From Dehalococcoidia bacterium (GTDB taxonomy: Bacteria > Chloroflexota > Dehalococcoidia > Plut-88900), in contig CBDBLV010000003.1 of NCBI GenBank assembly GCA_965207225.1, positions 1-64,000 of the forward strand: a DNA stretch of 64,000 bases, in the 5' to 3' direction. This document shows, piece by piece, positions 3,545-32,506 of this stretch (positions are counted from its first letter, which is position 1; each line of letters begins with the position of its first letter). A program made the position numbers and the translations under genes. The notes under the pieces were generated by a model. It saw only the letters and a program-made list of their open reading frames with translations, searched no databases and was not told the DNA's origin.

Positions 3545-3583
3545 AGAGAGGGAGGCTATCCGAATTGGATGGCCTCCCTCTCT
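3545..3583. terminator. hairpin between convergent genes, probable bidirectional terminator
   Basis: AGAGAGGGAGGCTATCC-gaatt-GGATGGCCTCCCTCTCT 17-bp stem with one G-U pair. Confidence 0.65.
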
Positions 3584-3713
3584 ACCGGCATGTATCCCGC
3601 TCTCTTTGCGTTTCACCAAGTCCGCATCAGCACCGGCGCGTTGGCGTCCAATGGTCGGCAGCCGAACTGCCGCCTTCAGCCCATGGCCCCGTGGGGACGC
3701 CGGCCGGTTGCTT

Positions 3714-8525: not shown

Positions 8526-8531
8526 CCGATA

Positions 8532-10166: not shown

Positions 10167-10659
10167 CGATTCTCCTAGCTTCCTTGCTTTCGAAATCTAG
10201 ATCGAGTTGGTTCGTTGTTCTTTGCCTCGCGCCCAAGACGGGTGCGTGTTTCTACACTGGTTTTGCTCCGTGCGGGACGACTGATATCACAATCGTCAGC
10301 TATCGTTTCCGCCATCGTGTTGAGTCTTAGTATCATTGTTCCCTGTCGTCGCCAACCGTGGAGTACGTTCGGATCATTGGTATTGAGCTTCGTATGCGTC
10401 CAATTGACGAGGTACGGTCTCGACACGGACAGTGGGCAAGGCCACCATTACGTTGATAATTGAGATATAGTATCATTACTATCCACCTATTACCTTAAAC
10501 CACCGAAACGGATGTTGTCAATAGCGCCGACCAAGAAAAGGCAGCGTTTCCATTGATGATCAGCAGCCATCAGGAGTATGATGAGGGCAGAACGGTCTTG
10601 AGCACACATAGGACGCTGAGAGTTGCCCGAAGGCCGTAGCCATGTCAGAGGGGAGCGTC

Positions 10660-10926
10660 ATGATTGCGAACGTGAAGGCCAAGTACTCCAACGGCGTTCT
10701 CACGCCCCTGGAGCCCTTGGACATTGCCGAGGGAGCGGAAGTGGCCCTGGTGATTGAGGAGATTCCCGTTCAAGCCGCGGCGAAGGGCGCGAATGCTATC
10801 GGAGACATGTCAATGTTGGCCAGGCACCTCATTGAGAAGTACCCGGATGACGGACGAGACCGACCCACCGATGGCTCTGTCAACTACAAACACTACATGT
10901 ACGGTCATCCGAAGAAGGAACCGTAA
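10660..10926 (+). CDS. antitoxin, AF2212/DUF104-like
   Basis: KAKYSNGVLTPLEPLDIAEG motif; stop/start overlap with PIN toxin. Confidence 0.8.
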   Translation: MIANVKAKYSNGVLTPLEPLDIAEGAEVALVIEEIPVQAAAKGANAIGDMSMLARHLIEKYPDDGRDRPTDGSVNYKHYMYGHPKKEP

Positions 10927-11348
10927 TGCGTGTGGTGTTCGCTGACAGTGGATATTGGATCGCACTACTCGACAACCGAGACGACCTTCACGCCCGCGCA
11001 CTCGACTTGAGCTCAGAATCCATCGCGGACCAACTGGTCACGACCCATATGGTTGTGGTCGAGGTACTCAATTTCGCATCGACCCGTGGCGAGTACATGC
11101 GACAGCGTGCAACTGAATGGGCGAAGAGTCTTCGTGGCAGACCAAGCATTGAGGTTGTCTGGCTTACTGAGGACCAGTTTTGGACAGCGGTGGGACGATA
11201 CGAGGCACGCCAGGATCAGACCTGGAGCCTAACGGACTGCGCGAGCTTCCTCATAATGGAAGAACGTGACCTGACTGAGGCGCTCGCCTACGACCGAGAC
11301 TTTGAGCAGGCTGGATTCGTCGCCCTGCTGAGAGGCAGTCACGAGTGA
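10926..11348 (+). CDS. vapC: PIN-domain (VapC-family) toxin
   Basis: VFADSGYWIAL...SLTDCASF...ALAYDRDFEQAGF. Confidence 0.88.
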   Translation: MRVVFADSGYWIALLDNRDDLHARALDLSSESIADQLVTTHMVVVEVLNFASTRGEYMRQRATEWAKSLRGRPSIEVVWLTEDQFWTAVGRYEARQDQTWSLTDCASFLIMEERDLTEALAYDRDFEQAGFVALLRGSHE

Positions 11349-11492
11349 CGCAAAATGCTGGGATTGTGAATGCGTGCGCCCCATTGAATATGCTGGAAGC
11401 CACGATAGGCGCAACGCTGGTAGGCAGCCCAAGAGAGACCACGCAACATCGTTTCGGTGGGTTTACAGACTGCCCAGCCTCAATTCGAAGAC

Positions 11493-11544
11493 GGTTCTGT
11501 CTACCGTCAAAATAGGCCCACCAGACTTGATAAAATCAAGAACC
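11493..11544. other. hybrid serine-recombinase att site A (left junction of element 1a)
   Basis: GGTTCTGTCTACCGTCAA-aata-GGCCCACCAGACTTGA-TAAAATCAAGAACC; shares a 16-bp core with 24842-24857 and has reciprocal arms. Confidence 0.9.
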
Positions 11545-11902
11545 TTCCGGTTGGCCTTGGTGCTGGACCTGTAGGGGCAATCCTACGGGCGAACCGCCTT
11601 GGGGAAGGCACGTCTCAGTGATGGGCGCACCCCGAGCCCTCTACGCGTGCTCGCTATTCTATGGTTGCCCTTCTCCATCCGGTAGCCGGTGCGAGGCTCG
11701 CTCAACAGGTAAGTGAGGTCCGTCTATTCCTAGTCGGGGCAGAGAGTGCCGAAGAGGGCCGGTACATCTCAGACGGCCACCACTCCACCGACCAGTCGCT
11801 TCACGGCAACTTGGTGACCCTTGCCTGTCAATGTCTTGACTTTTGTAGCAGACTGCATCACACTGTCGCACAGTTGCTACATATTGATGCGAGTGTCTTG
11901 AA

Positions 11903-12109
11903 TTGGCCAGAAAGCGACGAACGGTTTCCTATCCCGAAGGGGTTACTCCTGACCTCGAAGAGTTGCTGAACCGACTTCGCGAGTGCAGGGACGGCCCATA
12001 CTGGAACAGAAGCCTGAGTGACATCGGCGGAATGGTCCTGCTGAAAGGAGCTCAGTCGGAGCTAGAAAAATACAGTAACCAGGATCAACAAGGGGGGGCG
12101 GAGTCATGA
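11903..12109 (+). CDS. small hypothetical protein, possible regulator
   Basis: TTG start; ATGA overlap with the downstream methylase. Confidence 0.45.
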   Translation: MARKRRTVSYPEGVTPDLEELLNRLRECRDGPYWNRSLSDIGGMVLLKGAQSELEKYSNQDQQGGAES

Positions 12110-14631
12110 CCCTGACTCATGACCAGGTGCTGGAACACCTAAAGCACGAGTTCCATGGTCTCGGTTATGTCGGCGGACTCCTGCAAGAAGACTATGCATT
12201 CGCTGATGTCCTAGCCTCCCACTATGCGGTAAAACGCATCCCACTCGCAGCATTCGTTCAAGAACCTCCCTCCTACCGAACCGCCTCGTTCGGCGTGGCC
12301 GTAGCCAACGGACGGTCTGGAATCGACTCCATCCTTGACCATCGCTCCTTGGGCGCTCCGCAGATTCTTGAGATCAACGACGACCGAGTGCTCAGGTGGA
12401 AGGTCACAGGAAAGGGTAGGCCTATACTCTTGGATGAAGTAGGTGTGGATAGGCTCCATGGCTTCTTCAGCCAGCACCGTGATGATTGGTCACCCCAGCA
12501 AGTTCTGCGGGCCAAGTCCGCAGGGCCTGTGGCTACGCAACTCGACTTCCTTGACCTAGACTTAATGCCGCTTCTTGACTACGAGGTGCGTACCAAGCTT
12601 GATGTGCTCTTACGCGACACTGTAGCTTTGGCACGTAGGACATTCCAGAGAAACTTGCCGTTCACAGAAAAGCACTATCCTCCGCTGTTCCGTCTGATCT
12701 TCAGACTGATTGCCGCTAAAGTGCTAGCAGATCGTCGCTATCAAGGGGACTGGGATTTGGCTGATCCCACATCTGCGATAGAGGCTGTGGAGAACTTGTA
12801 CTTCGGGGACGCAGCTCTGGAACCCGTTCTTCAGGATTATGAAACGCAACTTGCCGTTTGGCAGCGTATCAAGGAGACCTTCCATTTCCAAAACCTTTCG
12901 GTCGATTCTCTTGCCTACGTCTATGAGAATACTCTGGTAACCCAAGAGACTAGAAAACTGTTTGGAATACATAGTACTCCACCAGAAATCGCCGAGTACA
13001 TTGTCAGAAGACTTCCGTTCGACAGCTTGGAGACCCATGAGCGCCGCGTCTTTGAACCCTTCTCTGGTCACTCAGTGTTTCTGGTGGCCGCGATGCAACG
13101 AATGCGTGAACTTCTGCCCGGAGAGATGAACTCTCGCCAGCGACACGATTACTTTGTTGACATGCTCTCTGGGATCGAGATAGACGACTTTGCCAGAGAA
13201 GTCGCCAAGCTGTCTCTCATGCTAGCCGACTATCCCAATCCCGACGGGTGGAGGCTGTATGGTGGAGATGCTCTGAGGTCTCCACTATTTGAGCAAGAAT
13301 TGGCGAAGGCCAACATCGTCCTATGCAACCCACCGTTTGAGATGTTCAGTGAGGATGAAAGAGGTCGTTACGACAATCTGTTCTCAGTACGGAAGCCAGC
13401 GGAAATCCTAAGTCGTGTGCTTCAGAACCCCCCCGAACTCTTAGGTTTCGTCCTCCCACGAGTATTCCTGAAGGGGCTGGGATACAGGAAGCTCCGGTCT
13501 CAGCTTGGGAATACTTACGCCTCTGTCGAGCTACTGGCCTTGCCAGAGCGTGTCTTCAAACGCTCGCGCGCCGAGACCGTGTTGTTGCTCTCCTATGGGC
13601 GTGGCCAGGGGACCGTGCGCCTAAAGGCAGGGGAGGTATATGAAGGAGACCACAAGGGCTTCTACTCTATTCAACCGTCGTACGAATTCGAAGAACACGT
13701 AGAAGACGCAGGGAAGGTGTTTGGCCATGGCATGTGGCGCCCGCCTCTTCACGATGTCTGGCGTGCGACGGCCAACTTGAAGCGCTTGAGCGACATTTCC
13801 TCCGTTCATCGTGGCATCGAATATAACCTACCCTTCGGGGGAAACGAATCACAACTAGTATCCGATAGGGACTCGCCCGGTTTTGTACCGGGAGTCCACA
13901 GGGTAAGGGGCACGGTAGAGCCATTTGCCGTTCTCAATACCGTTTTCCTCAACGCTTCCGTTGACTTCATGCGTGGGTCCGCTTACACGCTTCCTTGGGA
14001 CAAACCGAAGCTCATTGTAAACGCTAGTCGTCAGTCCGTAGGACATTGGAAGATTACGGCTTCATTGGACAATGGAGGTCTCGTCTGTTATCAGAACTTT
14101 CATGGAGTTTGGCCGAACGACGGCACTCCTTTGGAAGTCCTGGCTGCCGTGCTCAATGGCCCTGTTGCTAACGCATTTGTGAGCACCCATGGAACTGGTC
14201 GGCATGTTACAGTTCAGTCCTTGAAGGGCATCCCAGTCCCCGAGTTTGGCCATACACAGCAGCAGCACATATCGTCACTAGTCAAGCAATACTTGAATGC
14301 CCGTAGCCTTTGGCTGACTGAAGGGGTCGGTGCAGATGAAGCGCGCCAGCTTTGCACGTGGCTCCTGAAGTCGATAGACGCCGAAGTACTAAGGGCCTAC
14401 GATCTATCACCTCGCATAGAGCGTATGCTGTTGGATTACTTCGCCGGGCATTCCCGCCTTGGACCTGTCGAGTTCACGGAGTACTATCCTCGAGGCTTCG
14501 GTCCATACATTCCGTGGCACATTTACATTTCAGAGGAATTCAAGGAGGCCCAAGCCAAGAATACTCTGGACCGACTTCCCGTCATTCCAGCATCGACTAT
14601 TATCAATGAAGCCCTTTCCTATGTGGAATAG
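12106..14631 (+). CDS. N6-adenine DNA methyltransferase domain protein (RM-like, with TRD-like C-terminus)
   Basis: GIHSTPPEIA, FEPFSGHS (motif I), CNPPF (motif IV). Confidence 0.85.
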   Translation: MTLTHDQVLEHLKHEFHGLGYVGGLLQEDYAFADVLASHYAVKRIPLAAFVQEPPSYRTASFGVAVANGRSGIDSILDHRSLGAPQILEINDDRVLRWKVTGKGRPILLDEVGVDRLHGFFSQHRDDWSPQQVLRAKSAGPVATQLDFLDLDLMPLLDYEVRTKLDVLLRDTVALARRTFQRNLPFTEKHYPPLFRLIFRLIAAKVLADRRYQGDWDLADPTSAIEAVENLYFGDAALEPVLQDYETQLAVWQRIKETFHFQNLSVDSLAYVYENTLVTQETRKLFGIHSTPPEIAEYIVRRLPFDSLETHERRVFEPFSGHSVFLVAAMQRMRELLPGEMNSRQRHDYFVDMLSGIEIDDFAREVAKLSLMLADYPNPDGWRLYGGDALRSPLFEQELAKANIVLCNPPFEMFSEDERGRYDNLFSVRKPAEILSRVLQNPPELLGFVLPRVFLKGLGYRKLRSQLGNTYASVELLALPERVFKRSRAETVLLLSYGRGQGTVRLKAGEVYEGDHKGFYSIQPSYEFEEHVEDAGKVFGHGMWRPPLHDVWRATANLKRLSDISSVHRGIEYNLPFGGNESQLVSDRDSPGFVPGVHRVRGTVEPFAVLNTVFLNASVDFMRGSAYTLPWDKPKLIVNASRQSVGHWKITASLDNGGLVCYQNFHGVWPNDGTPLEVLAAVLNGPVANAFVSTHGTGRHVTVQSLKGIPVPEFGHTQQQHISSLVKQYLNARSLWLTEGVGADEARQLCTWLLKSIDAEVLRAYDLSPRIERMLLDYFAGHSRLGPVEFTEYYPRGFGPYIPWHIYISEEFKEAQAKNTLDRLPVIPASTIINEALSYVE

Positions 14632-14644
14632 AAGTTGATGGCTC

Positions 14645-15154
14645 ATGACAACGGAAGGCTATCTCTTAGATACAAACATCGCCAGTTGGGCCTGCCACGA
14701 GGGTAGTAAACCTCATGCCAGAGTAAGGGCAAGGGTGGATGGCCTCGGAGATGATGTAGCGTTCATTTCAGCAGTTTCCTTAGCTGAAGTTGAATATGGT
14801 CTCAATCTTGTCCCCTCAGGCGTGCAAGAGCCAGCTAACTTCGGGCGTGCAATGGATATGTATCAGGTTCTGCCTATTGATCGCCATACGGCAGAAATCT
14901 ACGGCAGCATACGAGCCGACCTCTTTAGGGCATACGCACCTAGAGACCGCCGGAACAGATTCGCCTCCCGTTACGTTGAGGATCTGCGCGAGCGCACTTC
15001 AGGTAAGGAACTTGGTATTCAAGAGAATGACCTGTGGATCGTGAGCGTTGCCGTCGAGTACAACTTGATATTCGTTACCGGAGATCGTGGCGGTGGCATG
15101 AAGAAGATCGTTGAGGTAGCAAACTACGCTCATCGGACACAGTATTGGAGCTAG
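14645..15154 (+). CDS. PIN-domain ribonuclease
   Basis: YLLDTNI...SAVSLAEVEYG...ENDLWI...FVTGD. Confidence 0.85.
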   Translation: MTTEGYLLDTNIASWACHEGSKPHARVRARVDGLGDDVAFISAVSLAEVEYGLNLVPSGVQEPANFGRAMDMYQVLPIDRHTAEIYGSIRADLFRAYAPRDRRNRFASRYVEDLRERTSGKELGIQENDLWIVSVAVEYNLIFVTGDRGGGMKKIVEVANYAHRTQYWS

Positions 15155-15236
15155 GTTGTATGAGTGCATTACCTAACCAAGCAGGCTTAGGGTTTACTGG
15201 CCATTCGAACACAGGCCGACAGGGTTCATAGAGCAA

Positions 15237-18125
15237 ATGCCACGACAGACAGAACCGAACGCGAACAACGCACTAGGCGACTTGCTACGAGGCATGATGC
15301 CGGGCTGTGAGGTCCGCTCTGAGAACACCCAGACTTTCCCTGACTATCCAGGCCGCCATGCCGACGTGCTGATTGCCGCTCCTGGCCGCTCCCCTGTAGT
15401 AGTCGAAGCCGAATATGAGCCGGCCGCTGAAGTGGAGAGGGATGCGTCCGAACGCTTGGGGCTTCGCGTGCAGGGACAACCCCGAACGGTCGAAGCCGCT
15501 ATAGCCGTGCGCTACCCGAAGGTTGTAGAGGATGCCTATGATGTGCGCCAGACCCTCTCCGAAGCTCGTCTCTCGTACTACGTCCTGCATCAAGACGGCA
15601 GTCGGTTTCCTGAATCGGGGTGGCTAGAAGGTTCAGCGACCGACTTGGCTGACCTAGCCCGTCTGGTGTCTGTCCCGCAGAAAGCGGTGGAGCAGGCGGC
15701 TGACACGCTTGAGCGCGGCATTGGCCAGGCCGCCAACCGCTTGGAGGAAATGGCTAAGCTGCGCCCTAACGTCACGCCAGTTATTGCCCGGTTGTTGGGA
15801 ATGAGCGACGTTCCCCAGACCCGTCGCATGGCCTGCGCCATTATCGCCAACGCCATGGTCTTCCACCAGCGCATCGCAGGGATACATGAGGGTGTGAAGC
15901 TTCTGCGCTTGGTGTGCGGTCCCAATGTCGCAAACCCGCAGGGTGAAACGCTAACGGCCTGGGAAGACATCCTGAAGATCAACTACTGGCCCATCTTTGC
16001 AATTGCCAAAGACATCTTGGAGCAGCTTCCTGGAGACGCTGCCACCGACATCTTGCGGGAGTTGCTGGAGACCGCTCAGGAGGTTGAATCCACCGGCGTC
16101 GACAACGCCCACGACTTGACCGGACGCATCTTCCAACGGCTTATCGCCGACCGGAAGTATCTTGCTACCTTCTACACCCTGCCAGCGTCAGCTGCGCTCT
16201 TGGCCAGACTCGCCGTAGCGAAGATGGATGGCGTGGACTGGTCCGACGCCGAGGCCATCGGCAGGCTGCGCATCGGGGATTTCGCCTGCGGCACCGGTGC
16301 TCTGTTGTCGGCGGTATATGAGCAAGTTGCTTCCCGCCACGAGCGCGCCGGGGGTGACTCCACAGCCCTGCATCCAGTGATGATGGAGGAAATCTTGTAT
16401 GGCTGCGACGTCATGCCCTCGGCCATTCACATCACCGGCTCCACCTTGTCCGGTATGCGGCCCAACGTGGGATTCAAGCAGTCCCGCCTCTACACCCTAC
16501 CGTATGGTGAGTTGGGGGACGGCAGCGTCTCCATCGGCTCCTTGGAACTGTTGATTTCAGATTCTCAGTTGACACTAGCAAATTTCAGCGATCCTGCCCT
16601 GCGCACAGGAAGCGTTGGAGAAGAGACTGCGGCTCAGGTCACCCTCGACATTCCCCATGGAGGATTTGACCTTGTGATCATGAATCCGCCGTTCACTCGA
16701 AACACTACGAATGAAGGTGAACACGCTGGTGAGTTCAATTCTGCCTTCGCTGCCTTCGATACGACCGACGAAACTCAGAGGGCAATGAGTAAGCGAATGG
16801 CCATCCTCAAGAAGGGCACGTGTTACCACGGCAATGCTGGTTTGGCATCGGCCTTCGCAGCGTTAGGTGACAAGAAGCTTAAGCCCGGCGGTGTATTGGC
16901 CTTGGTTCTGCCACTTTCAACTGCGTCTGGGCTGTCGTGGAAGGAATTCCGAAAGATGTTGGCGACCGACTACACTGATTTGACGGTCTTGAGCCTCGCG
17001 GCCAATGGCAGGGAGATGTCTTTCTCATCGGATACGGGAATGGGGGAATGCCTGATAGTCGCTCGAAAGCGCATAAAGGATGACCCGGCACGCGGCGCGC
17101 AGTTTGTGTCTCTTCGACATCGACCCAAGGGGTTCGCACAAGCCAGCACTATGGCAATTAGCATCACGCATCATGATAGTGTGAGGCAGATCGAAGACGG
17201 GCCTTATGGAGGGGCACACCTTCTCGTAGGGGGCGACACGGTTGGTGAAACGCTGACAGCCCGGCCGTCAACAGGCGGAGATAGTTGGGGCGGAGTCCGC
17301 GTTCTAGACTACTCTCTAGCCCAAACTGCCTACGCCCTCTTGAGCTCTAACTTATGGCTTCCTTCGAAGAAGCCACTGAAGCTGAATATGACCTTGCTCG
17401 GTAAGATGAGCAGGATCGGGCTGCATCATCGAGACATTACAGGCCCAACCCCAAGAGGCCCCTTTACGAAGGCTGCACCTAGTCCGACTGCCACCTATCC
17501 GTCCCTGTGGAATCACGATGCTAAGGAAGAAACCAGGATCGTGTGCTCACCCGATGCTCAGTTACTGGTAAAGACTGGGATGGAGGACAAAGCAGACAGG
17601 CTTTGGGCAGTCGCCAGTCGGACACACCTAAATGCAGAGTTTACATTTGGGTCTCAGCCTCTTGCTGTTGCCTTCACAGAGTTCAGGACCATGGGAGGAA
17701 GGGTATGGCCCAATGTGAAGCTCGCTGATCAGCGGTTCGACTACGCTTTCGCCGTGTGGGGCAATAGTACGATGGGCCTATTGTCGTACTGGTGGCACAC
17801 AAGCCGGCAACAGTCTAGCAAGGCTACTACTTCATTGGGCTCCGCGGAGATGTTGCCCGTGCTCGATTTCCGCGCCTTGAGCGATGCGCAGCTGGTGATG
17901 GCGGAGACGATATTCGACGAGTTCAGGGGCAAGGAGTTGAAGCCTGCCTACCTTGCCGACGCTGACCCTAACCGCGCGTTGCTGGACAGGCGCGTGATCT
18001 GCGGCCTCTTGGGCTTCGACGAGGAAGTGTACAAGGCAGTTCGGAGGCTGTCGGCCAAGTGGTGCGCCGAGCCGTCCGTTCACGGTGGGAAGGCACGCCC
18101 AAAGACTGCCAAGCTCGTCATCTAG
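15237..18125 (+). CDS. type IIG-like restriction-modification fusion (nuclease + N6 methyltransferase + specificity region)
   Basis: N-terminal HADVLI...VVVEAE nuclease-like motif; TFYT, DFACGTG, MNPPF. Confidence 0.8.
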   Translation: MPRQTEPNANNALGDLLRGMMPGCEVRSENTQTFPDYPGRHADVLIAAPGRSPVVVEAEYEPAAEVERDASERLGLRVQGQPRTVEAAIAVRYPKVVEDAYDVRQTLSEARLSYYVLHQDGSRFPESGWLEGSATDLADLARLVSVPQKAVEQAADTLERGIGQAANRLEEMAKLRPNVTPVIARLLGMSDVPQTRRMACAIIANAMVFHQRIAGIHEGVKLLRLVCGPNVANPQGETLTAWEDILKINYWPIFAIAKDILEQLPGDAATDILRELLETAQEVESTGVDNAHDLTGRIFQRLIADRKYLATFYTLPASAALLARLAVAKMDGVDWSDAEAIGRLRIGDFACGTGALLSAVYEQVASRHERAGGDSTALHPVMMEEILYGCDVMPSAIHITGSTLSGMRPNVGFKQSRLYTLPYGELGDGSVSIGSLELLISDSQLTLANFSDPALRTGSVGEETAAQVTLDIPHGGFDLVIMNPPFTRNTTNEGEHAGEFNSAFAAFDTTDETQRAMSKRMAILKKGTCYHGNAGLASAFAALGDKKLKPGGVLALVLPLSTASGLSWKEFRKMLATDYTDLTVLSLAANGREMSFSSDTGMGECLIVARKRIKDDPARGAQFVSLRHRPKGFAQASTMAISITHHDSVRQIEDGPYGGAHLLVGGDTVGETLTARPSTGGDSWGGVRVLDYSLAQTAYALLSSNLWLPSKKPLKLNMTLLGKMSRIGLHHRDITGPTPRGPFTKAAPSPTATYPSLWNHDAKEETRIVCSPDAQLLVKTGMEDKADRLWAVASRTHLNAEFTFGSQPLAVAFTEFRTMGGRVWPNVKLADQRFDYAFAVWGNSTMGLLSYWWHTSRQQSSKATTSLGSAEMLPVLDFRALSDAQLVMAETIFDEFRGKELKPAYLADADPNRALLDRRVICGLLGFDEEVYKAVRRLSAKWCAEPSVHGGKARPKTAKLVI

Positions 18126-18222
18126 TCGCAGCGCCTGCGCTGAATCCAGAGAGCACGTTTCCTATCCCCGGTGTGCCACGTGACGATTGCCCATCGGGTC
18201 ACTCAATCGCTACCCTCGTGCT

Positions 18223-18555
18223 ATGGCGATCTCAGACCTACAACTACTCGACACCCTCAGCAGAACGCCCTTCGTCGATTCAACGGAGCTGGCGGGCATC
18301 CTGGGCGAGCCCCACGCGACCGTGCACCGCAGGCTGTCCGAGTTGCTGGATGACGGCATCGTGGGGCGCATCACCCACGGCACCGTCCACCTGCCGTCGA
18401 GCGGAAGGTATTGCCTGACGACGAAGGGCATCAGCGAGGACGCCGACTTTCTAGACTTCGACACGCCCTCGGACTTCGTGCGGGCCTACCCCATGTCGAG
18501 GGAGTGGCTGACGCTGCTCCTGCGCCGGATGGACACCGTTTACCACCTGTCTTGA
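18223..18555 (+). pseudogene. truncated replication-relaxation protein (N-terminal fragment)
   Basis: closely matches the first ~105 aa of 52571-54301 (PFVDSTELA...DFVRAYPMSREWL...RRMD), then stops. Confidence 0.85.
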
Positions 18556-18559
18556 TTCT

Positions 18560-18848
18560 CCGCTTCCGACTCCTTCACTTGTTCTTCGAGAGCCATGACT
18601 TTCTCCGTTATGTCACCGGCGTCATCGTCCTGCACATCCCCGGCGTCAACGCCCACGGCCCGACACTCCTCCAACGCCCTTCGCATCCGCCAGAGACGCG
18701 ACTAGACTCTCGACAGGCCACCACCATGACGCCGCTTCATCCCCAGAGCCTCTGTCACGGTCCGATAGGGGCTGTCCAATAGGAGCCTTCACGCCGTCGC
18801 CGGAATCCCTACGCCTACCTCCATGACAGGCTCATCGCGGTCAACCAC
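18560..18848 (-). pseudogene. decayed paralog of HTH/coiled-coil protein 31437-32306
   Basis: reverse complement aligns by eye with 31437-31750 (e.g. GCGGATGCGAAGGGCGTTGGAGGAG vs GCGGATGCGGAAGGCGTTGGCGGAG); no intact ORF; left end approximate. Confidence 0.6.
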
Positions 18849-20059
18849 GTGGGTCGTCATGCCTCAGAAAGTACAATTCCTACAATACAATCACTACAAT
18901 GAAGTTGCGATGGAGCCGCAGTAAAACTGCTCCCTGGATTCCCTTCGCTTCGCCCTGATTTCCCTTCATTCAGCTACGAATGTCAACCAGATTGTATTCT
19001 GCAATGCACTTCAATCCTCCCTACTGCCCTCCCACTGCGATAACATCCTCTGAGCGATTGTAGTCTGACGCATCAGCCCCCTGAACACCGGCACAGTGAA
19101 TTCCCGGCTGTTGACGTTCTCCCTGAGGATGCTCGACTCCCCATCGCTTGCTCCCGCCATGTTCATCACAGAGCACCGCCGACATCGCGAACGCCAGCCC
19201 TCTCCACGATGTCGTGTCTGGCGGTCGCCCGGTGTCAGTGCTCTCAGCCGGTGATGAGCCTGACACTGGCTTTCCGTCTTTGACGCTCGGCCTCTCCCTT
19301 CACTTCGCCCGCGAGGTCACTCACGGCGTCCTGCATCACGAGGTCGTGCTGATGACTGCGAATAACCGGGAGGCCGTCGCCGCGTTCTACGCATCACCAC
19401 CGACACGCTCGCATGGATACTTCCGCCGCCGTATTCCTTCGACAGCCCCGCGATGGCCCTGATGCATCAGGCACAACAATGTCCACAGTTTCCGTTCCGA
19501 GCACTTCCATTAGGAGCTCTCCCAGCAGCCTTGCTGGGACAACTTGCAGACGCGACCGGTCACGCATCTCCCCTTCCGCCCACAAATGTACAATCCGTTG
19601 CAGAACCGACCGGTCAGGGGTGGTCAGCATCGTCGCTCATGCCTCTCACCCTCCAGCTACGGCCAAAGCTACGCAGCCCTGTCCGAAACCCTCACCCAAC
19701 GGAGACGCAGGCCCTCGCAACTTGCCGCCAACTTGTCGCCGAAACCGTTCCCAGGGCTTCCTATAGGGCGGAAAAGGGCATTCCCTCTACTCACCGTGTC
19801 GGCCCCCAACAGCTCCCAAAAGTACATTTCGTTGCAGAACCGGCGGGATGACGGAGACCTCGCCGATCACGTCCTCCCCGACCTGTTCGACGCTATCGAC
19901 AGGCTGACGTGTCACCATGTAACGACCGGGACCAGGGATTCGTCATCGTCTTCAGGGAGACGAAAACGCGCTCCAACACGCCGGTCTGCTCGACGTCACG
20001 CACCCCCGCCTCAAGCGCCTCTTTTGCCCTGTTTTGTCATCGGAGGGCCACCACGACGC

Positions 20060-20082
20060 CGCGTCATGCACCCCCACCTCAA
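20060..20082. promoter_or_regulatory. conserved 23-bp non-coding backbone motif, candidate oriT/nic site
   Basis: CGCGTCATGCACCCCCACCTCAA, identical at 63853-63875 and 20/23 in reverse at 54684-54706. Confidence 0.45.
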
Positions 20083-21439
20083 GCATCTTTTTGTCATTTC
20101 CGACCGGACTGGGGACTTTCACGAAAGTGTTCACAGATTATGCGGACAAAAGGCCGATTTACCCCTGTCTCAGCTTTGCCGCGACCCGTTTGATGCGTCA
20201 CCGACAAAACTCAGATTCGTGTACACCCCTCGCACTGCGCCGACGGCCTCGATTTTCGAAGACCTCGGAAGGGGTCCCCTGGACGCCCCCATCTTGGAGG
20301 GCTGATGTCCCCATCAGAGCATCCACCATTCTCACGACACCACGGGTTCCATGCGCCCAACGTCGCCGTTCACGTCGTCCCGTTCAACCTGTCCGACACA
20401 GACGAACAATCAGGAACCGTAGGCCATGCATTCAGACTCTACGGCGATCCTGCGCTTCGGCTTGGCGATCATCTCTGCGTCCCGGCTGACGCTCACCGCA
20501 GCCTCTCTTGCCTGCTGACCCATCCCGATTTCAGCCTTTCCATCGCCTCGCAAAAATCCAACTTTCAGCTATGGCCTTTCCAACTCGGACCCCAGGTCAG
20601 GCACTTGCATAAACGCAACTCTCAGCTACGGCTCATCCAGCTCCAGACCGGAACGTACCCGCAAGTCGAACTGTTCACTGGTTACGGCCTGTAGAGGCCG
20701 ATTTCTCCCTTCATCAGCTACGAAACGACCCGACTTGGATTTTTCCAACTGACTTCATATCCCTGTACAGCCCTGCGGCATCGCTATAGGGCTTGTTGGC
20801 CCGAGGCCCTACATGGGCGCTCATGTGAGTGCCCTCGCAGGTAGTTACGCCCGGTATCTCGACCGCTCAGACTGGAACGCACATCCCTGGCCCATGCAAC
20901 GCCGGGACGGGATGAGCGACATGAGAGACGCCAACTTGAGAAATCCATCGACTGACCGCCGGACGATGGCGGACCCCGCCGAGCAGCGGGAGGCAGTGCG
21001 CCCACCTTCGGCGGCAGGCGTCCCGGTCCCTGTCAGTACCCAAGCCGCTTGCTGAGCGTGAGGGCGGCGACTGAGAGGCCGACCGGCCCGGATTTCCACT
21101 TCAAGCCACTACGCCGTTAGGTTCTCAAACCTCACCGGCACTTTGTCCACTTTCGTAGCTGCCGCTGTCCAGTGGCGCCCGACTCGCTCACCGGCGTTTT
21201 GTCCACTCCCCTAGCTGACACTGTCCGGTAGGGGTGGAGGGAGCACCGGAATCGAATTGCTTACTCCGATGCGACAGGCTTCCCCATCCGCTTCGATTCC
21301 AGCTACGACATCGCCCGATTGCCTCTTGTCCGCCAAAGCCCAATTGCTGTACACGGGTACGACCTCATCGACGACGCCATGAATGGCTCGCCCTGAAAGG
21401 GAGGATGTGGGCGTCCCCTCCGGGATGCTGGATTGCCTC

Positions 21440-21468
21440 TTGCATTGATTCTGTATCTGGAATATAAT
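21440..21468 (+). promoter_or_regulatory. sigma70-type promoter of the TA operon (probably leaderless transcript)
   Basis: TTGCAT-17 bp-TATAAT; ATG 6 nt downstream with no RBS. Confidence 0.65.
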
Positions 21469-21474
21469 ACGCTC

Positions 21475-21837
21475 ATGACCTGGGAGGTCGAGTACACGGA
21501 CGAGTTCGGGGAGTGGTGGCGGGAACTCTCGGAGGGCCAGCAGGACGCAGTGGCCGCCAGAGTCGAGTTGCTCATGGAGCACGGCACCAACCTGCCGTAC
21601 CCCTTCTCCTCGGACATCAGAAGCACAAGGCACGGGGTCATGCGGGAGCTTCGAGCGCAGAGCGGCGGGAGGCCCCTCAGGGTCTTCTACGCCTTCGACC
21701 CCAGGCGAACGTCGATCCTGCTCATCAGAGGAGACAAGACGAGCAGCGACCGGTTCTACGAGGAGTACGTGCCGGTGGCCTACGGCCTCTACGACGAGCA
21801 TCTGGAAGATCTGCGAAAGGAGGGGTTGATCCAATGA
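21475..21837 (+). CDS. RelE/HigB-family toxin
   Basis: WEVEYTDEFGEWW...MRELRAQSGGRPLRVFYAFDPRR; toxin-first gene order. Confidence 0.88.
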   Translation: MTWEVEYTDEFGEWWRELSEGQQDAVAARVELLMEHGTNLPYPFSSDIRSTRHGVMRELRAQSGGRPLRVFYAFDPRRTSILLIRGDKTSSDRFYEEYVPVAYGLYDEHLEDLRKEGLIQ

Positions 21838-22169
21838 GTGGACGTCATCCGTTCAGCGAGTTGACCAGGGACTTCACGCCGGAGCGCCGACGGCGCATTG
21901 AGGAGATGAAGGGTGAGTTGCTCGCCGAGATGCCGCTGCACGAGCTTCGCCGGGCGCGGGAGTTGACCCAGCGGGACATGGCGAAGCTGCTGAAGGTGAA
22001 CCAGCCCGCCGTCTCCAAGATGGAGCAGCGGGCGGACGTGTACGTTTCCAGCCTGCGGTCCTACATCGAGGCCGTGGGCGGGAAGCTCAAGATCGTGGCC
22101 GAGTTTCCCGAAGGTGAGATCGCCATCACCAACTTCTCCGACGTGGGAGAGGCCAAGGAGACTACGTAG
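21834..22169 (+). CDS. HigA-like XRE antitoxin
   Basis: ATGA overlap with toxin; LHELRRARELTQ...VSKMEQRAD...YIEAVGGKL. Confidence 0.88.
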   Translation: MSGRHPFSELTRDFTPERRRRIEEMKGELLAEMPLHELRRARELTQRDMAKLLKVNQPAVSKMEQRADVYVSSLRSYIEAVGGKLKIVAEFPEGEIAITNFSDVGEAKETT

Positions 22170-22192
22170 TTGGACGGCGGTGTAGAAGCAAG

Positions 22193-23260
22193 ATGATGAA
22201 TGACCCTCATTGGCAATCTCTATCTCGTTTTGAGTCCTACGATTTCGTATCGCGCTGGTATGAGAAAGCTCACAAGAGAGTGCCGAGCGCCGCGAAGGTC
22301 TCGCAAATCAATGCTTGTTTCATCCAGGGTCGTGAGTACTTCTCAAACGCCCGTTCCTCAGCGATGGCCGTAAAGCCGCTGCTGCTCTACTACGGTGCAT
22401 TGTCCCTCAGCAGAGGAGTCATTCTCGCAAACAATCCCAACAAAAAAGAGGAGTCTCTCAAGCCAACACACGGATTGGAACCTGTTGACTGGCAGGGAAC
22501 ATTGAAAGGCCACATCAGCAACGTGCTGGAATTGCAGATACGCGCTACTGACGGAACATTCTCCGAACTGGCAGAGGTTTGCCATAACTTGAAGACGATG
22601 CACAAGTTTCAAGGCCCGACCGACCGGATGGGTTCGGATGGTCACAATTTGGGAGACATCGAATTCGCCAGAGGCCAGAGCATGTTGACGCTCGACGACT
22701 TGATTTCTCGACTGATACGAACAGGAGGGATGTACGAGGAAATTACTGGAAAGCCGGGCAGAATGTTCACGGGTTGCAGAATCGCATCGCATCCACCTGG
22801 CACGCATTTTGCCTTTCCCCTAGTAGGAATTCCTTCAGAGCTGAAGAAACTCTCTGATGGTACGAATGTCATCATAGGTTCGTCTAATCAGATCGCACCC
22901 GGATTGATGCAGAGTGATGATGCCGGAGACACATTGATCTTTGTTCACAAGGGTCACGCGGCATACGAAAACGCCAACAAGCTGTTCCCGGTTTCCCATT
23001 ACGAGAGCGGTGAGTTCATGGCCACTGTCCTGGATTTTCCGAATGGCGACAAGATGACAGAATTCTTCAAGCTATATTTGGTCTCGTACTGCCTTGGGAT
23101 GCTGTGCCGGTATTACCCCTCGGTCTGGATGGCGCTATTGCGGAACGAAAAGGGAGATTTCGCTCAGCCCCTCTTGGTCAGGGCTGTCGAAGCAATTGAA
23201 AGCGACTTTCCAGAGAATGCGTTACACCAATTGACAGGGTATCCGAAGAAGCTGACTTAG
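22193..23260 (+). CDS. YaaC-like protein
   Basis: QGREYF...KPLLLYYG...HGL...LGMLCRYYPSVW motifs; lower GC than flanks. Confidence 0.7.
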   Translation: MMNDPHWQSLSRFESYDFVSRWYEKAHKRVPSAAKVSQINACFIQGREYFSNARSSAMAVKPLLLYYGALSLSRGVILANNPNKKEESLKPTHGLEPVDWQGTLKGHISNVLELQIRATDGTFSELAEVCHNLKTMHKFQGPTDRMGSDGHNLGDIEFARGQSMLTLDDLISRLIRTGGMYEEITGKPGRMFTGCRIASHPPGTHFAFPLVGIPSELKKLSDGTNVIIGSSNQIAPGLMQSDDAGDTLIFVHKGHAAYENANKLFPVSHYESGEFMATVLDFPNGDKMTEFFKLYLVSYCLGMLCRYYPSVWMALLRNEKGDFAQPLLVRAVEAIESDFPENALHQLTGYPKKLT

Positions 23261-24943
23261 ATGAAGCAGGAGGACGACATGAAGAAGAAGCATCTACAGC
23301 CCCTGACGTCGGCGGTGCTCTACGCCAGGGTGTCCAGCGACCGCCAGGACATGGACCTGTCCGTGTCCGCACAGCTGCGGGCGCTCAAGGAGTACGCGAA
23401 GGCCAACGGCTACTCCGTTGCCAGGGAGTACATCGACGAGGCCGAGAGCGGCAGAGTCGCCGACCGGCCCCAGTTCCGGGAGATGATCGAGGAGGGATCC
23501 AAGCCCCAGGCTCCTTTTGAAGTGATTCTCGTCTGGAAGTTTTCGAGGTTCACCAGGAAGCGGGAGCACGCCGTGGCCTTCAAGTCCCAGCTGCGGCGCA
23601 AGGGCATCCGCGTGGTGTCCATCACCGAGCAGGCCGAGGACAACGCCACTGGCAGGTTGCTTGAGGGCATCATCGAGAGCGTGGACGAATATTACAGCGA
23701 AAATCTTGCGCAGGAGGTCGTCCGGGGCATGAGGGAGGCCGCGTCGAGAGGTTTCTTCCTCGGCTCCAAGGCCCCCTTTGGCTACCGGAAGATCAAGGTG
23801 CAGGACGGGGCGAAGGAGCGTCCCACCCTGGAGGTGGACCCGGCCACCGCCCCGGTGGTGAGGGAGATATTTCAGAAGTCCCTGGGAGGCCACGGCCTCA
23901 AGGAACTGTGCAGGGAGTTGAACGAGAGGGGCGTCACCAATCGGGGCAAGCGCTGGTACAAGGGCGGTCTCCACTACGTGCTGCGAAACGAAGCCTATAC
24001 GGGAACCGCAGTGTGGGGACTCAAAGGCAAGGGAGAGAAGGCCCAGGACCCGGTGAGGGTCAAGGGAGCGTGGCCCGCCCTGGTGTCGAAGGAGCTGTAC
24101 GACGAGGTGCAGCGGGCGATGAGCGAGCGGGCCCCGAAGGTGCAGAGGCCCGGCAGAGTGGGGAGCCAGTACCTGCTGAGCGGGCTGCTCAAGTGCGGTG
24201 TGTGCGGCAGGCCCTACTCGGCCCAGGGAGCCAAGAGTGGACAGTTCGCCTACTACATCTGCGGCACGCTGTTCAGAGAGGGAGCGGGGACGTGCAGCGC
24301 CCGCTACCTGAACGCCCCCAAGCTGGAGACCTTTGTGGTTGAGAAGATCAGGGAGCGAATCCTGACCGAGGAGACCATTGTGGAGCTTGTGCAGCTTGTG
24401 GCGGAGGAGATAGACGCGATGGCGGGAGAGCTGTCCGATAGGCTGGAGACGGTGGAGACTGAGCTAGGAGACGTGCGGAGGCGTCTGGGGAAGCTCTACG
24501 AGGCCATCGAGACGAGCGAGTTGACCCTGGAGATGCTCTCGCCCCGCATCATGTCCCTGCGGCACCGCGAGGAGCAGCTTGAGGCTGCCAGGGAGGACGC
24601 CGAGGCGCAGCTTGAGCGGCGCAGGGTTGCCCTACCCGACGCAGAGGAGATAGCGGAGTACGTGGAGGACTTCCGGGAGTTCCTGAAGGAGGGGACGATC
24701 CCCGAGCGCAAGGCGCTGATCCGCAACTTCGTCGAGGGCATCGAGGTGGTGGGAGACGAGGCGACGCTGACGTACACGGTGCCCATGCCCAGGGACGGAG
24801 TGAGGCGGGAGTCGGCCTCGGTTCTTGATTTCGTCCAGTCCGGCCCACCAGACTTGACGGTAGACAGAACCGGGGCGTGGAGAGCCACCTCCTCGGCGTC
24901 CCTTCCGCCTATGGGAGCATCATCCGGCATAGGTATGGTGTAG
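23261..24943 (+). CDS. large serine recombinase Int1a (resolvase + recombinase + Zn ribbon)
   Basis: LYARVSS catalytic motif, LLSGLLKCGVCG Zn ribbon, coiled coil; alternative start 23279; last ~28 aa are read-through across the att site. Confidence 0.95.
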   Translation: MKQEDDMKKKHLQPLTSAVLYARVSSDRQDMDLSVSAQLRALKEYAKANGYSVAREYIDEAESGRVADRPQFREMIEEGSKPQAPFEVILVWKFSRFTRKREHAVAFKSQLRRKGIRVVSITEQAEDNATGRLLEGIIESVDEYYSENLAQEVVRGMREAASRGFFLGSKAPFGYRKIKVQDGAKERPTLEVDPATAPVVREIFQKSLGGHGLKELCRELNERGVTNRGKRWYKGGLHYVLRNEAYTGTAVWGLKGKGEKAQDPVRVKGAWPALVSKELYDEVQRAMSERAPKVQRPGRVGSQYLLSGLLKCGVCGRPYSAQGAKSGQFAYYICGTLFREGAGTCSARYLNAPKLETFVVEKIRERILTEETIVELVQLVAEEIDAMAGELSDRLETVETELGDVRRRLGKLYEAIETSELTLEMLSPRIMSLRHREEQLEAAREDAEAQLERRRVALPDAEEIAEYVEDFREFLKEGTIPERKALIRNFVEGIEVVGDEATLTYTVPMPRDGVRRESASVLDFVQSGPPDLTVDRTGAWRATSSASLPPMGASSGIGMV

Positions 24944-26427
24944 CGCAGCAAAGCGTTGCCGGGCATCACCACGATCTCCTTCACGAAGGACTCGATGAAG
25001 GCCCTGCGTTCGGTCAGTTCGCTCTTGTTGAGGAACATGCTCATGTCCTGGGCATAGGCCGTGATGGTCTCCACGTCGTCCAGCACCTCCCTGCGCTGGG
25101 AGAGCATCGCACGTGCCTCCTGCGCTGACGCCTCCAGCTTCTCCTGCCGCTCCCTGTGGTCTCTGATGCGGGGCTTGAAGTCCTCGATGTCCAGGTCCGT
25201 GGTCTCCGCCAGGTCGTAGAGCCGTCCCAGCCTGCGCTTCACGTCCTCTAGCTCTGCCTCGACGGTCTGAAGCTTCTGCCGCTGCTCCCTGGCGATGCCG
25301 TCCATCTCCTCGTCCACCAGCTTCACCAGCTCCCGGATGTTGGACTCGGTGAGCACGTTCTCCCTGATCTTGCCCACCACCATCTCCTCGAAGCGCCGGG
25401 CGTTGAGCCTGGGGGTCTCGCAGGCGTCCCTGCCCCGCTTCATGATGGACTGGCAGACGTAGTAGGCGTACTTCCCGCTCTTGGCGTCCTGGCCGCTGAG
25501 CGCCCCGTTGCACGTCCTGCACCGGACCATCCCGCTGAGCAGGTAGGTGCTGCCGACCCTGCGGGGGTGCGTCTTCCTGGGCGCCCTTGAACGCATCCGC
25601 CTGTTCACCCTCTTGAACTGCGCCTTCGAGATGATTCCGGGGAAGGCCTTGTCCACTCTGACCGGCTCGGCCTTGTCCTTCCCGCCGACGCCCCACAGAA
25701 GGGTTCCCGTGTAGGCTTCGTTGCGGAGAATGATGTGGACGCCGTTCTTGGACCAGAGCCTGCCCGTAGGGTTGGCGATGCCCTCGGCGTTGAGGGTCTG
25801 GGTGATGTCCAGGATGCCCCTGCCCGACTCGGCCATGGAGAAGATGCGCTGCACCACGGGAGCGGTGGCGGGATCGGGTTCCAGGGTGGGTCTCTTCTTG
25901 GCCCCGTCCTGTACCATGCGCTTCTGGTAGCCATAGGGCACCCTGCTTGCGACCCAGAAGCCGCGTGAGGCGGCCTCCCGCATCCCCCGGCGAACCTCCT
26001 CTGCCAAATTTTCGCTATAGAATTCATCGACCGACTCGATGATGGCCTCCATGAGCCTGCCGGTGGCGGAGTCGTCGGCGTGCTCGGTGATGGACACGAC
26101 GCGGACGCCCTTGCGCCTGAGCATGGACTTGAAGGCAACGGCGTGCTCCCGCTTACGGGTGAACCTGCTAAATTTCCAGACCAATATCTCCGCAAACGGG
26201 GCCTCCGGCTTGCTGGCCTCGTCCAGCATCTTGCGGAACTCCGGTCTGTCGGCGATGCGGCCGCTCTCGGCCTCGTCGATGTACTCCCGTGCGACGGTGT
26301 AGCCGTTCTTGTCGGCGTGGTCGCGCAATGCCCGCAGCTGGGCGGCGACGGACAGGTCCACGTCCTGCCGATCGCTGGATACCCTGGCGTACAGGGCCAC
26401 GGGGGTCGGGGTTGTTTCGTTAATCAT
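24496..26427 (-). CDS. large serine recombinase Int2a, convergent with Int1a
   Basis: LYARVSS, LLSGMVRCRTCNG; ATG 26427 overlaps RHH stop; C-terminal ~115 aa is antisense read-through of int1a. Confidence 0.95.
   Translation of the reverse strand: MINETTPTPVALYARVSSDRQDVDLSVAAQLRALRDHADKNGYTVAREYIDEAESGRIADRPEFRKMLDEASKPEAPFAEILVWKFSRFTRKREHAVAFKSMLRRKGVRVVSITEHADDSATGRLMEAIIESVDEFYSENLAEEVRRGMREAASRGFWVASRVPYGYQKRMVQDGAKKRPTLEPDPATAPVVQRIFSMAESGRGILDITQTLNAEGIANPTGRLWSKNGVHIILRNEAYTGTLLWGVGGKDKAEPVRVDKAFPGIISKAQFKRVNRRMRSRAPRKTHPRRVGSTYLLSGMVRCRTCNGALSGQDAKSGKYAYYVCQSIMKRGRDACETPRLNARRFEEMVVGKIRENVLTESNIRELVKLVDEEMDGIAREQRQKLQTVEAELEDVKRRLGRLYDLAETTDLDIEDFKPRIRDHRERQEKLEASAQEARAMLSQRREVLDDVETITAYAQDMSMFLNKSELTERRAFIESFVKEIVVMPGNALLRYTIPMPDDAPIGGRDAEEVALHAPVLSTVKSGGPDWTKSRTEADSRLTPSLGMGTVYVSVASSPTTSMPSTKLRISALRSGIVPSFRNSRKSSTYSAISSASGRATLRRSSCASASSLAASSCSSRCRRDMMRGESISRVNSLVSMAS
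24820..24871. other. hybrid att site B1 (right junction of element 1a) inside both integrase ORFs
   Basis: GGTTCTTGATTTCGTCCA-gtcc-GGCCCACCAGACTTGA-CGGTAGACAGAACC. Confidence 0.9.
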
Positions 26428-26654
26428 GCCTGTCCTCCTTCGTCTTGGTCGGTCTTTGCAACCGTGCGGGAGCGCAGTCTCTCCAATCGCTCCCGTCTGC
26501 GCCACTCCCGCTCCTCCATGAACAGGCGTATACCCTGCCGGAGGAGCTCGCTCACGGAGAGGTCGTCCTCACGCATCACCCTCCGCACCTGGGCTTCCAT
26601 CTCCGGGGGCAGCGAGAACGTGATGGTCTTGGATCGTCGGGTATTGGTCGGCAT
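26424..26654 (-). CDS. CopG/RHH regulator coupled to int2a
   Basis: KTITFSLPPEM...SVSELLRQGIRLFMEE. Confidence 0.85.
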   Translation of the reverse strand: MPTNTRRSKTITFSLPPEMEAQVRRVMREDDLSVSELLRQGIRLFMEEREWRRRERLERLRSRTVAKTDQDEGGQA

Positions 26655-26686
26655 AGTCTCTCTAGGCTCGCATCCTACATTGCATT

Positions 26687-26726
26687 GTCTTACTCTACAC
26701 TATCGGACGTCCAGCTTCAACTGCAA
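26687..26726 (-). promoter_or_regulatory. promoter with GAGTAAGAC box for RHH-int2a
   Basis: TTGCAG-18 bp-TAGTGT then GAGTAAGAC; same layout as three other promoters in the window. Confidence 0.5.
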
Positions 26727-26747
26727 TAGCCGTGGACGAGGCCGGAC

Positions 26748-31054: not shown

Positions 31055-31436
31055 GGGGCATATTCTCCTTATTGTCTAGCGTCACAGCGAAAAGAACGTA
31101 TGAGCTATTATCGGCCATCCGACACGGGGAAAGCAAGGCCCAGATGGCCGCAGAGGACGCTCACGACGCACCGACTCGGCCCGGACTCAGGCGGCGGGCC
31201 GAGGAGCCTGACGTGTCGGACTACAATCGCTCAGGGACGGCTTTCGCCCTGGGAGGGCTGTAAGGAGATTAGGAGCACATTGTAGAATACAATCTCGGTG
31301 ATATCGGTAGCTGTTTGAAGTGGAATCCGGGATGCCTGTAGACAATCCGGCGAGCAGTTTTACTGCGGGTCAGTGCCAAGTTTATTGTACTGATTGTATT
31401 GTAGTCTGTTGTAGTTTCTGACGCAAGGAGGAGCCA

Positions 31437-32306: not shown

Positions 32307-32506
32307 CCGACTGAAGTAGCTCAAGGCGCCCTTCGCCGTCGGCCAGCAGATCGGACAGTCCGCGGCGGACTCGGCTCTTTCCAAGCGATGGACGGAGGTG
32401 GTAGAATGCAACCCGTAGAAGAACGCTCTGTTGGAGGAGCCTCGGAGTGGATGCGCCGGTGTCGGTTGGAGATGGCGCAGGCTCCGGGCCGACTGTCGGG
32501 TGAGAT

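Follow-up and report, generated by a model that had tools for sequence, protein, structure and literature searches.

Hybrid attachment sites in a sponge-associated Dehalococcoidia genome probably mark seams between serine-integrase islands accreted in tandem at tRNA genes

The window analyzed here, 64,000 nucleotides of contig C3 (C3:1-64000) in the metagenome-assembled genome (MAG) of a sponge-associated Dehalococcoidia bacterium, contains two 52-bp sites, A (11493-11544) and B1 (24820-24871), both read on the forward strand, that resemble attachment (att) sites of a large serine recombinase (LSR). A preliminary description of the window recognized this pair as the boundaries of a 13.3-kb element, here called P1 (11519-24845, forward strand), and proposed that the element targets the att site of a sister element rather than a host gene. 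The question raised by the locus is what DNA such an element is integrated into. We consider it probable that LSR islands have accreted in tandem at tRNA loci of this genome, a 4.03-Mb assembly of five contigs, and that A and B1 are the seams between neighboring units of one such array.

Two island families meet at these sites. They are named by the direction of their integrase genes, which read with the tRNA-like core of the site in P islands and against it in M islands. Site A is the seam between the far-end half-sites of islands M0 and P1 around a tRNA-like core, with the CC at 11518-19 as its geometric center, and B1 is the seam between the integrase-end half-sites of P1 and M1, centered on the CC at 24845-46. 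The two sites are reciprocal hybrids of two 52-bp attP-like palindromes and bound an element with its own LSR, and the direct shared core and the central CC of the preliminary description were found exactly where it had placed them. The 16-nt core is identical at 11515-11530 and 24842-24857, and a scan of the window gave a third copy, with one mismatch, at 58972-58987. This copy lies in a further B-type seam, B2 (58950-59001, forward strand), which joins islands P2 and M2 and has the same make-up as B1, so that B1, the only partner site named earlier, stands but is not the only one. The cores of A, B1 and B2 are asymmetric and all in direct orientation. As 0.91 chance matches to the core would be expected at up to three mismatches, the core alone is weak evidence, and it is the arms that are decisive for the hybrid nature of the sites. 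The 18-nt left arm of A recurs as an exact inverted copy in the right arms of B1 and B2 (three matches in the window against 0.04 expected), and the 21-nt left arm of B1 recurs inverted, with three mismatches (18/21), as the right arm of A and directly in B2 (three matches against 0.00 expected); both inverted-arm claims of the preliminary description are borne out by these searches.

The sites differ in their relation to genes. B1 and B2 sit in a 3.1-kb direct repeat (23268-26406 and 57398-60536, 89% identity), each copy of which consists of two convergent integrase genes that are about 70% alike in DNA and overlap at their 3' ends across the site. B1 accordingly falls within the 3' ends of two integrase genes (23261-24943 on the forward strand and 24496-26505 on the reverse strand), whereas A lies in none; its neighbors are a PIN gene that stops at 11348 and an open reading frame (ORF) that begins at 11661. 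The earlier placement of each site within the terminal part of an element's own integrase gene would thus hold for the reconstructed parental sites and does not hold for site A in the DNA as it stands.

The shared core, GGCC-CACCA, is a copy of the 3' end of a tRNA gene, because six tRNAs called by ARAGORN, tRNA-Ile(gat), Ala(tgc), Lys(ctt), Val(gac), Met(cat) and Val(tac), have CC-CACCA ends of their own that run into integrase-end half-sites in this genome. These six were found among 41 family junctions, obtained by scanning the assembly for the core flanked by an arm hexamer; the scan returned 50 places, and the other 9 match the hexamer alone. Five of the tRNA junctions are with M integrase ends and one is with the integrase end of another family, Q. 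Seams of the A type, between an M far end and a P far end, make up 7 of the 41 junctions, and seams of the B type, between a P integrase end and an M integrase end, make up 8, one of them degenerate. Q far ends meet P far ends in three junctions, and an M far end meets a Q integrase end in one. The rest are M far ends beside other DNA (7, of which the one at C5:379102 faces an integrase end that belongs to a different LSR family), P integrase ends beside host DNA (4), Q far ends beside host DNA (3) and non-tRNA DNA beside a family half-site (2). This one core is common to no fewer than five families of arms, M, P, Q, R and S, and these arms are family-specific inverted repeats that start with GGTTCT. 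No site composed of two M halves (M/M) or of two P halves (P/P) occurs among the 41 junctions of the genome.

Searches with tblastn, using the P1 and M1 integrases (IntP1 and IntM1) as queries, showed the extent of the system in this genome. They recovered 32 full or near-full integrase genes, one apparently frameshifted, together with another 4 that are partial or fragmentary and with 4 serine recombinases that are only distantly related; 13 of the 32 are of the P type, defined as at least 80% identity to the integrase gene at 23261. The array that begins in the window runs M0, A, P1, B1, M1, a decayed seam, P2, B2 and M2, and continues through an A-type seam at C3:67908, P3, a B-type seam at C3:86825 and M3 to host DNA at C3:106863. 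It comprises at least seven units over at least 107 kb, as the contig start falls inside M0, and every seam in it has a tRNA-like core, the decayed seam having since lost its copy. Other arrays of the genome start at a tRNA gene (tRNA-Met, tRNA-Val twice and tRNA-Lys), including a five-unit array at tRNA-Met (C5:1911972-1990364) and a stack in the order tRNA-Val(gac), M, A-type seam, P. Summed as array spans, a measure that is generous for two arrays on C4, stacked islands total about 0.5 Mb, or about one-eighth of the assembly. At C4:707136-709039, two P far-end half-sites lie inverted, 1.9 kb apart, beside an A-type seam, and they may be a remnant or an inversion product.

Near-identical copies of the island ends were found with different neighbors. 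M0 is colinear, at 96.8-98.8% identity, with the right-hand portions of two copies that are 27-29 kb long (C4:708988-735719 and C5:2003402-2032372), and its end recurs at 99-100% identity, the last 3 kb at two other places and the last 1 kb at a third. With the window copy included, the right end of M0 is thus present at four places, each time with another partner on its right. At C2:152068-155744, beside another seam, the left 3.7 kb of P1 is found again at 97% identity, and M1 is 93.7% identical over 7.5 kb to a solitary M island at tRNA-Lys (C2:75306-88286). Because the M0 right end and the P1 left end recur nearly unchanged beside other neighbors, as independent mobile elements do, the units are, on this sequence comparison, discrete and recently mobile.

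The same junction grammar was detected in 11 kin genomes, in other Dehalococcoidia MAGs, to which the closest relatives of the P integrase belong, and in metagenome contigs. From other genomes, 80 IntP loci were sampled, giving 57 rows with a site and 25 loci without one. In 29 of the rows with a site, no classed arm follows the P integrase end; an M arm does so in 15, a Q arm in 9 and a P arm in 2 (loci L033 and L040), with two further rows. The partners of individual island ends were read at 22 kin loci at P far ends, 9 at M integrase ends and 10 at M far ends. The left partner of the P far end is an ARAGORN tRNA in 5 of the 22 (Val-tac twice, Val-cac, Lys-ctt and Ile-gat), a tRNA-like sequence in 1, an M far end in 2, a Q far end in 5 and other DNA in 9. 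M integrase ends adjoin a tRNA in 4/9 loci, a Q far end in 2/9 and a P integrase end in 3/9, and none of the 10 kin M far ends is joined to an M integrase end. A metagenome sample of 80 loci of IntM relatives contained 31 with a site, and among these a called tRNA lies against the integrase end in 7, convergent integrase pairs occur in 8, a P/P site in 1 (L239) and an M/M site in none. Two kin arrays show that B-type seams form at an occupied tRNA locus without an A-type partner: one consists of tRNA-Val(tac), a 19-kb P island, a B-type seam, a 17.7-kb M island and host DNA (genome G010), and the other consists of tRNA-Val(cac), a 16-kb P island and a seam of P and Q integrase ends (genome G002). 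Together with the stack at tRNA-Val(gac), these arrays contain both stacking orders, with P or M next to the tRNA gene.

The distance of a GTTC motif from the center of the site separates island halves from target halves. Across all distinct sites collected, 172 family half-sites have their GTTC at -25, with 178 GTTC positions in the full count. Among partners that belong to no family, it stands at -19, 6 bp further inward, in 18 of 40 on the left, where it is the GTTC of the tRNA T-loop, and in 7 of 38 on the right. In the model of serine integrases described in PMC3783163, the attB zinc-ribbon motif is likewise shifted inward, by 5 bp, and attP exceeds attB in length by about 10 bp. The 6-bp shift and the shorter target seen here match, at the level of sequence, this attP/attB difference, and as GTTC at -19 is kept in 18/40 left partners against 7/38 right ones, the tRNA side reads as the better-conserved target half. 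Sequence alone confines the crossover to CCACCA, the block that is common to all junctions and contains the geometric center CC.

On the favored reading, each family would carry an attP of about 52 bp inside the 3' end of its integrase gene, the center of which copies the terminal bases of a tRNA (GGCC-CACCA). Integration of an island would be an attP x attB recombination that has the 3' end of a tRNA as its target, with the crossover presumably at or beside the central CC, and the tRNA end would be rebuilt from the copy carried by the island itself. The M integrase gene would then end beside the tRNA and read against it, and the P integrase gene would end at the far end and read outward. With a regenerated tRNA end on one side and a tRNA-like half at the far end, the same locus could be used again by an island of another family, and repeated stacking would yield seams of M and P far ends (A-type) and of P and M integrase ends (B-type, with convergent overlapping integrase genes). 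A newcomer could land at the regenerated tRNA or at the distal junction; we infer that the former is favored because the tRNA half keeps the motif in attB register. If islands of one family stacked, an intact attP would come to lie between attL and attR, an arrangement that was never seen.

Both integrase genes of the P1/M1 pair encode LSRs, and the position of the site within them has consequences for the proteins. IntP1 (23261-24943, forward strand) is 560 residues long as it stands, its final 33 codons coming from the neighboring island, and the convergent IntM1 (24496-26505, reverse strand) continues for about 125 codons past the site as antisense read-through of IntP1. The second pair consists of IntP2 (57337-59073, forward strand), which is 89% identical to IntP1, and the convergent IntM2 (58626-60557, reverse strand); the overlaps of the two pairs span about 450 bp each (24496-24943 and 58626-59073). 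IntP1 and IntM1 match PF00239 (Resolvase), PF07508 (Recombinase) and PF13408 (Zn_ribbon_recom), all above cut-offs, their PDB matches are serine integrases (TP901-1, SPbeta and one other), and they share 57% amino-acid identity and the sequence YARVSSDRQ, which we take to be the active-site serine motif of LSRs. When the separated elements are computed, IntP and IntM both stop 18-20 codons past the center, with similar tails. In L033 and L040, whose P/P sites are intact, the integrase runs on for 10-12 codons after the core, and the computed form of P1 is similarly short-tailed. With attP inside the final 20-25 codons of the gene, integration and stacking are read from these sequences to swap the C-terminus of the integrase. 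The tRNA-like core nucleotides encode S-G-P-P in one integrase gene and S-G-G-P on the opposite strand in the other. In both families it seems to be the palindromic att DNA, and not the function of the protein, that dictates the conserved peptide at the C-terminus.

A stronger version would treat P and M as a coupled stacking system, in which same-family stacking is blocked, in line with the lack of any M/M seam, and cross-family stacking favored, the convergent tails are rewritten (IntP gaining 33 foreign codons for about 20 of its own, and IntM about 125 for about 18), neighbors switch or lock each other's integrases, and P islands are followers of M and Q ends in this genome. We regard this version as speculative and doubt that it is correct.

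Tandem accretion at tRNA genes has to be weighed against other histories of the same DNA, and the order of events cannot be read from the final sequence, because all three possible orders give the same one. The history closest to the preliminary description is that P1 entered an intact M/M site, either a sister attP or a tandem seam of M0 and M1, by recombination of the attP(P) x attP(M) type, which would make a sister att, not a host gene, the target. Formally, recombination of A with B1 does restore two more-symmetric sites, and an excision of P1 by that route is conceivable; the P and M arms share GGTTCT and GTCAA, so that cross-binding can be imagined, and none of the 13 P islands of the genome touches a tRNA gene. 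However, the M/M site required as substrate, which had been predicted as the empty site, is absent from the junctions of this genome (0/41), from the kin loci at M ends (0/19, being 9 integrase ends and 10 far ends) and from the metagenome loci with a site (0/31), and according to PMC3783163 known serine integrases do not recombine pairs other than attP x attB without extra factors. The other predicted product, the P/P circle junction, does exist as a type, having been seen three times in other genomes (L033, L040 and L239), and is missing from this one. Kin P islands placed directly at tRNA genes (5/22) and kin B-type seams without a matching A-type seam also argue against entry through a sister site. 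With a core that is a tRNA 3' end, tRNA junctions in 6 of the 41 and A- and B-type seams that recur systematically (7 and 8 times), the proposal that the element targets a sister att instead of a host gene is not supported, and as the history of P1 it appears unlikely. We prefer accretion because it needs only junction types that are observed as ends of arrays.

Growth at the distal side is a closer relative of the favored reading, in that newcomers would enter the far-end junction of a resident island, made of a family half-site and host DNA, and P islands would be followers of M and Q far ends. The final structure would be identical to that of proximal growth, of the P far ends in this genome 7 lie at M far ends, 3 at Q far ends and none at a tRNA, and the units next to tRNA genes are M (5) or Q (1). 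Kin arrays with P proximal and M or Q distal would make M or Q the follower, so that any such rule is not family-specific, and the preferential retention of GTTC at -19 on the tRNA side, compared with the DNA downstream in the host, points to the tRNA as the receiving end; we consider distal growth a rather improbable account. Least credible by a wide measure is that no site-specific event took place and that the pattern reflects chance, an assembly artifact, homologous recombination or duplication, or DNA inversion by convergent integrases. The 3.1-kb integrase pair is indeed repeated, and the MAG has 8.3% contamination by marker count, but the arm matches lie far above chance, the junction grammar is repeated across kin genomes, other MAGs and metagenome contigs, the repeats are 89% alike and so are not collapsed copies, and the cores of A, B1 and B2 are direct rather than inverted.

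Several observations weigh against tandem accretion at tRNA genes. No P island of this genome is tRNA-proximal (0/13), the far ends other than those at M and Q abutting other DNA (1) or decayed seams (2), a pattern that is also expected if P preferred sister ends. In kin genomes, 9 of the 22 P far ends abut DNA that is neither a tRNA nor a family half-site, so that P integration is looser than a tRNA-only rule. In A as in B1, both halves are in attP register and come from different families, unlike the halves of a canonical attL or attR. As the contig starts within M0, the assembly lacks the head of the C3 array and shows no tRNA for it. Finally, an excision product was not found: the window stretch occurs in 20 runs, comprising sponge or marine metagenomes and 'organism A', and in four of these, compared over 9500-27000 as contigs, a form that drops rare variants, the joint of 11518 to 24846 was not among the 15 of 64 joints listed.

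Some apparent leads on the history of the array were followed and set aside. A 5-fold higher depth to the left of A at first suggested a subpopulation free of P1, and is explained by the four near-identical genomic copies of the M0 segment. The end of C1, where a tRNA-Ala adjoins an M integrase gene, was considered as the missing left part of M0 and rejected, as it is 92% identical to M3-type islands and 81% to M0-type copies. A kin P island at tRNA-Val(tac) lacking the Q island found at that tRNA here was considered as a test of the order of arrival, and discarded since the islands are not orthologous. An empty attB was sought in 12 genomes through the host DNA beyond the window array (C3:106914 onward), and none was found; the single orthologue of that DNA, at 92% identity in genome G004, starts 194 nt deeper and is without a tRNA over the 1.5 kb covered.

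Judged by their cargo, the units of the window are integrative islands, probably mobilizable ones, and carry defense genes. M0 (1-11518) is the right-hand 11.5 kb of an M island, the remainder of which lies beyond the contig start, and by Pfam it carries a giant Calx-beta gene (3714-8525, reverse strand) and an AF2212-like/PIN pair (10642-11348). P1 contains two large N6-methylase/type IIG-like genes, one MmeI-like (12106-14631) and one Eco57I-like (15237-18125), with PADLOC methyltransferase matches, separated by a PIN gene (14645-15154) and followed by a helix-turn-helix (HTH) remnant (18187-18555), an HTH gene (21513-22169) and a YaaC-like gene (22193-23260) that adjoins IntP1, along with several small ORFs without a Pfam match. 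The YaaC-like gene is absent upstream of other copies of the P integrase in metagenome contigs, a 1117-nt stretch (window 22150-23268) being replaced by about 32 nt in three contigs of X17 and two of X18.

M1 (24846-41976, about 17 kb) encodes a Replic_Relax protein (26748-28415) and a TraG/TrwB-like coupling protein (28412-31054), both on the reverse strand, and a 2839-residue repeat protein with one fn3 match (33460-41979), whose ORF has internal repeats of about 330 bp at 39.2-41.8 kb and terminates exactly within the decayed seam; a 2314-residue ORF antisense to it (35056-42000) is probably spurious. At this seam (41976-41993, forward strand), a P far-end half-site is reduced to its outer arm. 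Homology to M3 (C3:106300-106599) ends at 41976, and relative to M3 about 0.3 kb has gone, including the M far-end half-site and the core, so that M1 and P2 are probably fused for good. P2 (41977-58975, forward strand, about 17 kb) carries, by Pfam, META-domain, GmrSD_C-like and RCC1-repeat proteins, an N6_N4 methylase and NgoMIV restriction-modification pair (48324-50530) and a Replic_Relax protein (52535-54301). M2 extends beyond the window to the A-type seam at C3:67908. Beside IntM2 lies a DUF4365 protein (60688-61971, reverse strand) with a PADLOC match to the nuclease part of Argonaute-associated proteins (E = 1.8e-20). A 1.1-kb inverted repeat of 81% identity, with one copy in P2 (54552-55655) and one in M2 (62934-63996), flanks the IntP2/IntM2 pair, and the ORFs within it (325 and 333 residues) have no Pfam match.

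What began as one odd pair of sites is thus part of a family-wide grammar, in which natural copies reveal the attP, attB, attL and attR forms base by base. It offers a natural case of a serine-integrase target class, namely tRNA 3' ends with the T-loop GTTC in attB register, instead of a single locus, and sites made of two attP-register halves from different integrases, for which the current model of directionality makes predictions. For sponge symbionts, it means that about 0.5 Mb of a genome appears to be built of stacked islands with restriction-modification, toxin-antitoxin and mobilization genes. For tool building, it provides many related integrases with distinct arms and a common core.

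A description of serine integrases that target tRNA genes in arrays was not found in a literature search that was not exhaustive and did not extend to supplements, and the word 'tRNA' has zero occurrences in the portion of Durrant et al. (PMC10083194) covered by it. The closest precedent is the serine-recombinase islands at ssrA in Dehalococcoides, which, as described in McMurdie et al. 2011 (PMC3146451), lie in tandem downstream of ssrA, are each bounded by a direct repeat, 20 bp long, that copies ssrA's 3' end and carry a serine recombinase of about 540 residues, DsiB, next to attL on the reverse strand; accretion and cis-mobilization were already proposed there, and a similar case is mentioned for Dehalogenimonas (PMC13390414). 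The islands described here resemble them in bacterial class, in the use of a serine recombinase, in tandem stacking at the 3' end of a small-RNA gene and in an M-like placement of the integrase (PMC3146451). They differ in their target, which is many tRNA genes and not ssrA; no family junction was found near the tmRNA gene of this genome (C1:198772-199125). Of the six-gene ssrA-island module (DsiB, DsiA, RecF-like, ParB, Mom and an embedded tRNA-like gene), IntM1 has no DsiA-like small recombinase, ParB or Mom beside it and instead adjoins the Replic_Relax and TraG-like genes, and IntP1 adjoins the YaaC-like gene. There is, in addition, a second family, P, of opposite polarity, the seams are hybrids of two different 52-bp palindromes, and the att site lies within the reading frame of the integrase.

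In staphylococci, staphylococcal cassette chromosome (SCC) elements integrate through CcrAB or CcrC at the 3' end of rlmH/orfX, regenerate the site and form composite tandem islands, their target being the 3' end of a protein gene and two co-oriented recombinases lying in one element. To our knowledge, integrase genes that read through the att site have not been reported for SCC. The likeness lies in serine-recombinase islands at a conserved gene 3' end, with regeneration of the site and tandem composites, and the difference in the tRNA targets and in the read-through of att by the integrase genes. SCC has itself been cited as a parallel to the ssrA islands (PMC3146451). Tyrosine-integrase arrays at tRNA genes, such as those of integrative and conjugative, integrative and mobilizable, and cis-mobilizable elements (ICE, IME and CIME) and the tycheposons (bioRxiv 10.1101/2020.12.28.424599), share the reuse of one tRNA locus, the regeneration of its end and the unrelated cargo, defense genes included; tyrosine recombinases are given there for 910/937 tycheposon-like elements, whereas the chemistry here is that of serine recombinases acting on palindromic sites of 40 to 52 bp.

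The phage serine integrases A118/LI, Bxb1 and phiC31 have the same domain architecture, an attP about 10 bp longer than attB, an outer motif placed further inward in attB and a central asymmetric crossover, and in the account given in PMC3783163 they use single protein-coding or intergenic sites with attP outside the reading frame. In the islands, the integrase holds attP in its final 20-25 codons, the tail appears to be swapped and the target is a gene class, the tRNAs. A recombination site inside the integrase frame, such that integration alters the gene, is known from archaeal integrases of the SSV type (PMC7253208); those are tyrosine recombinases whose gene is split in two, whereas here a short C-terminal tail alone would be exchanged.

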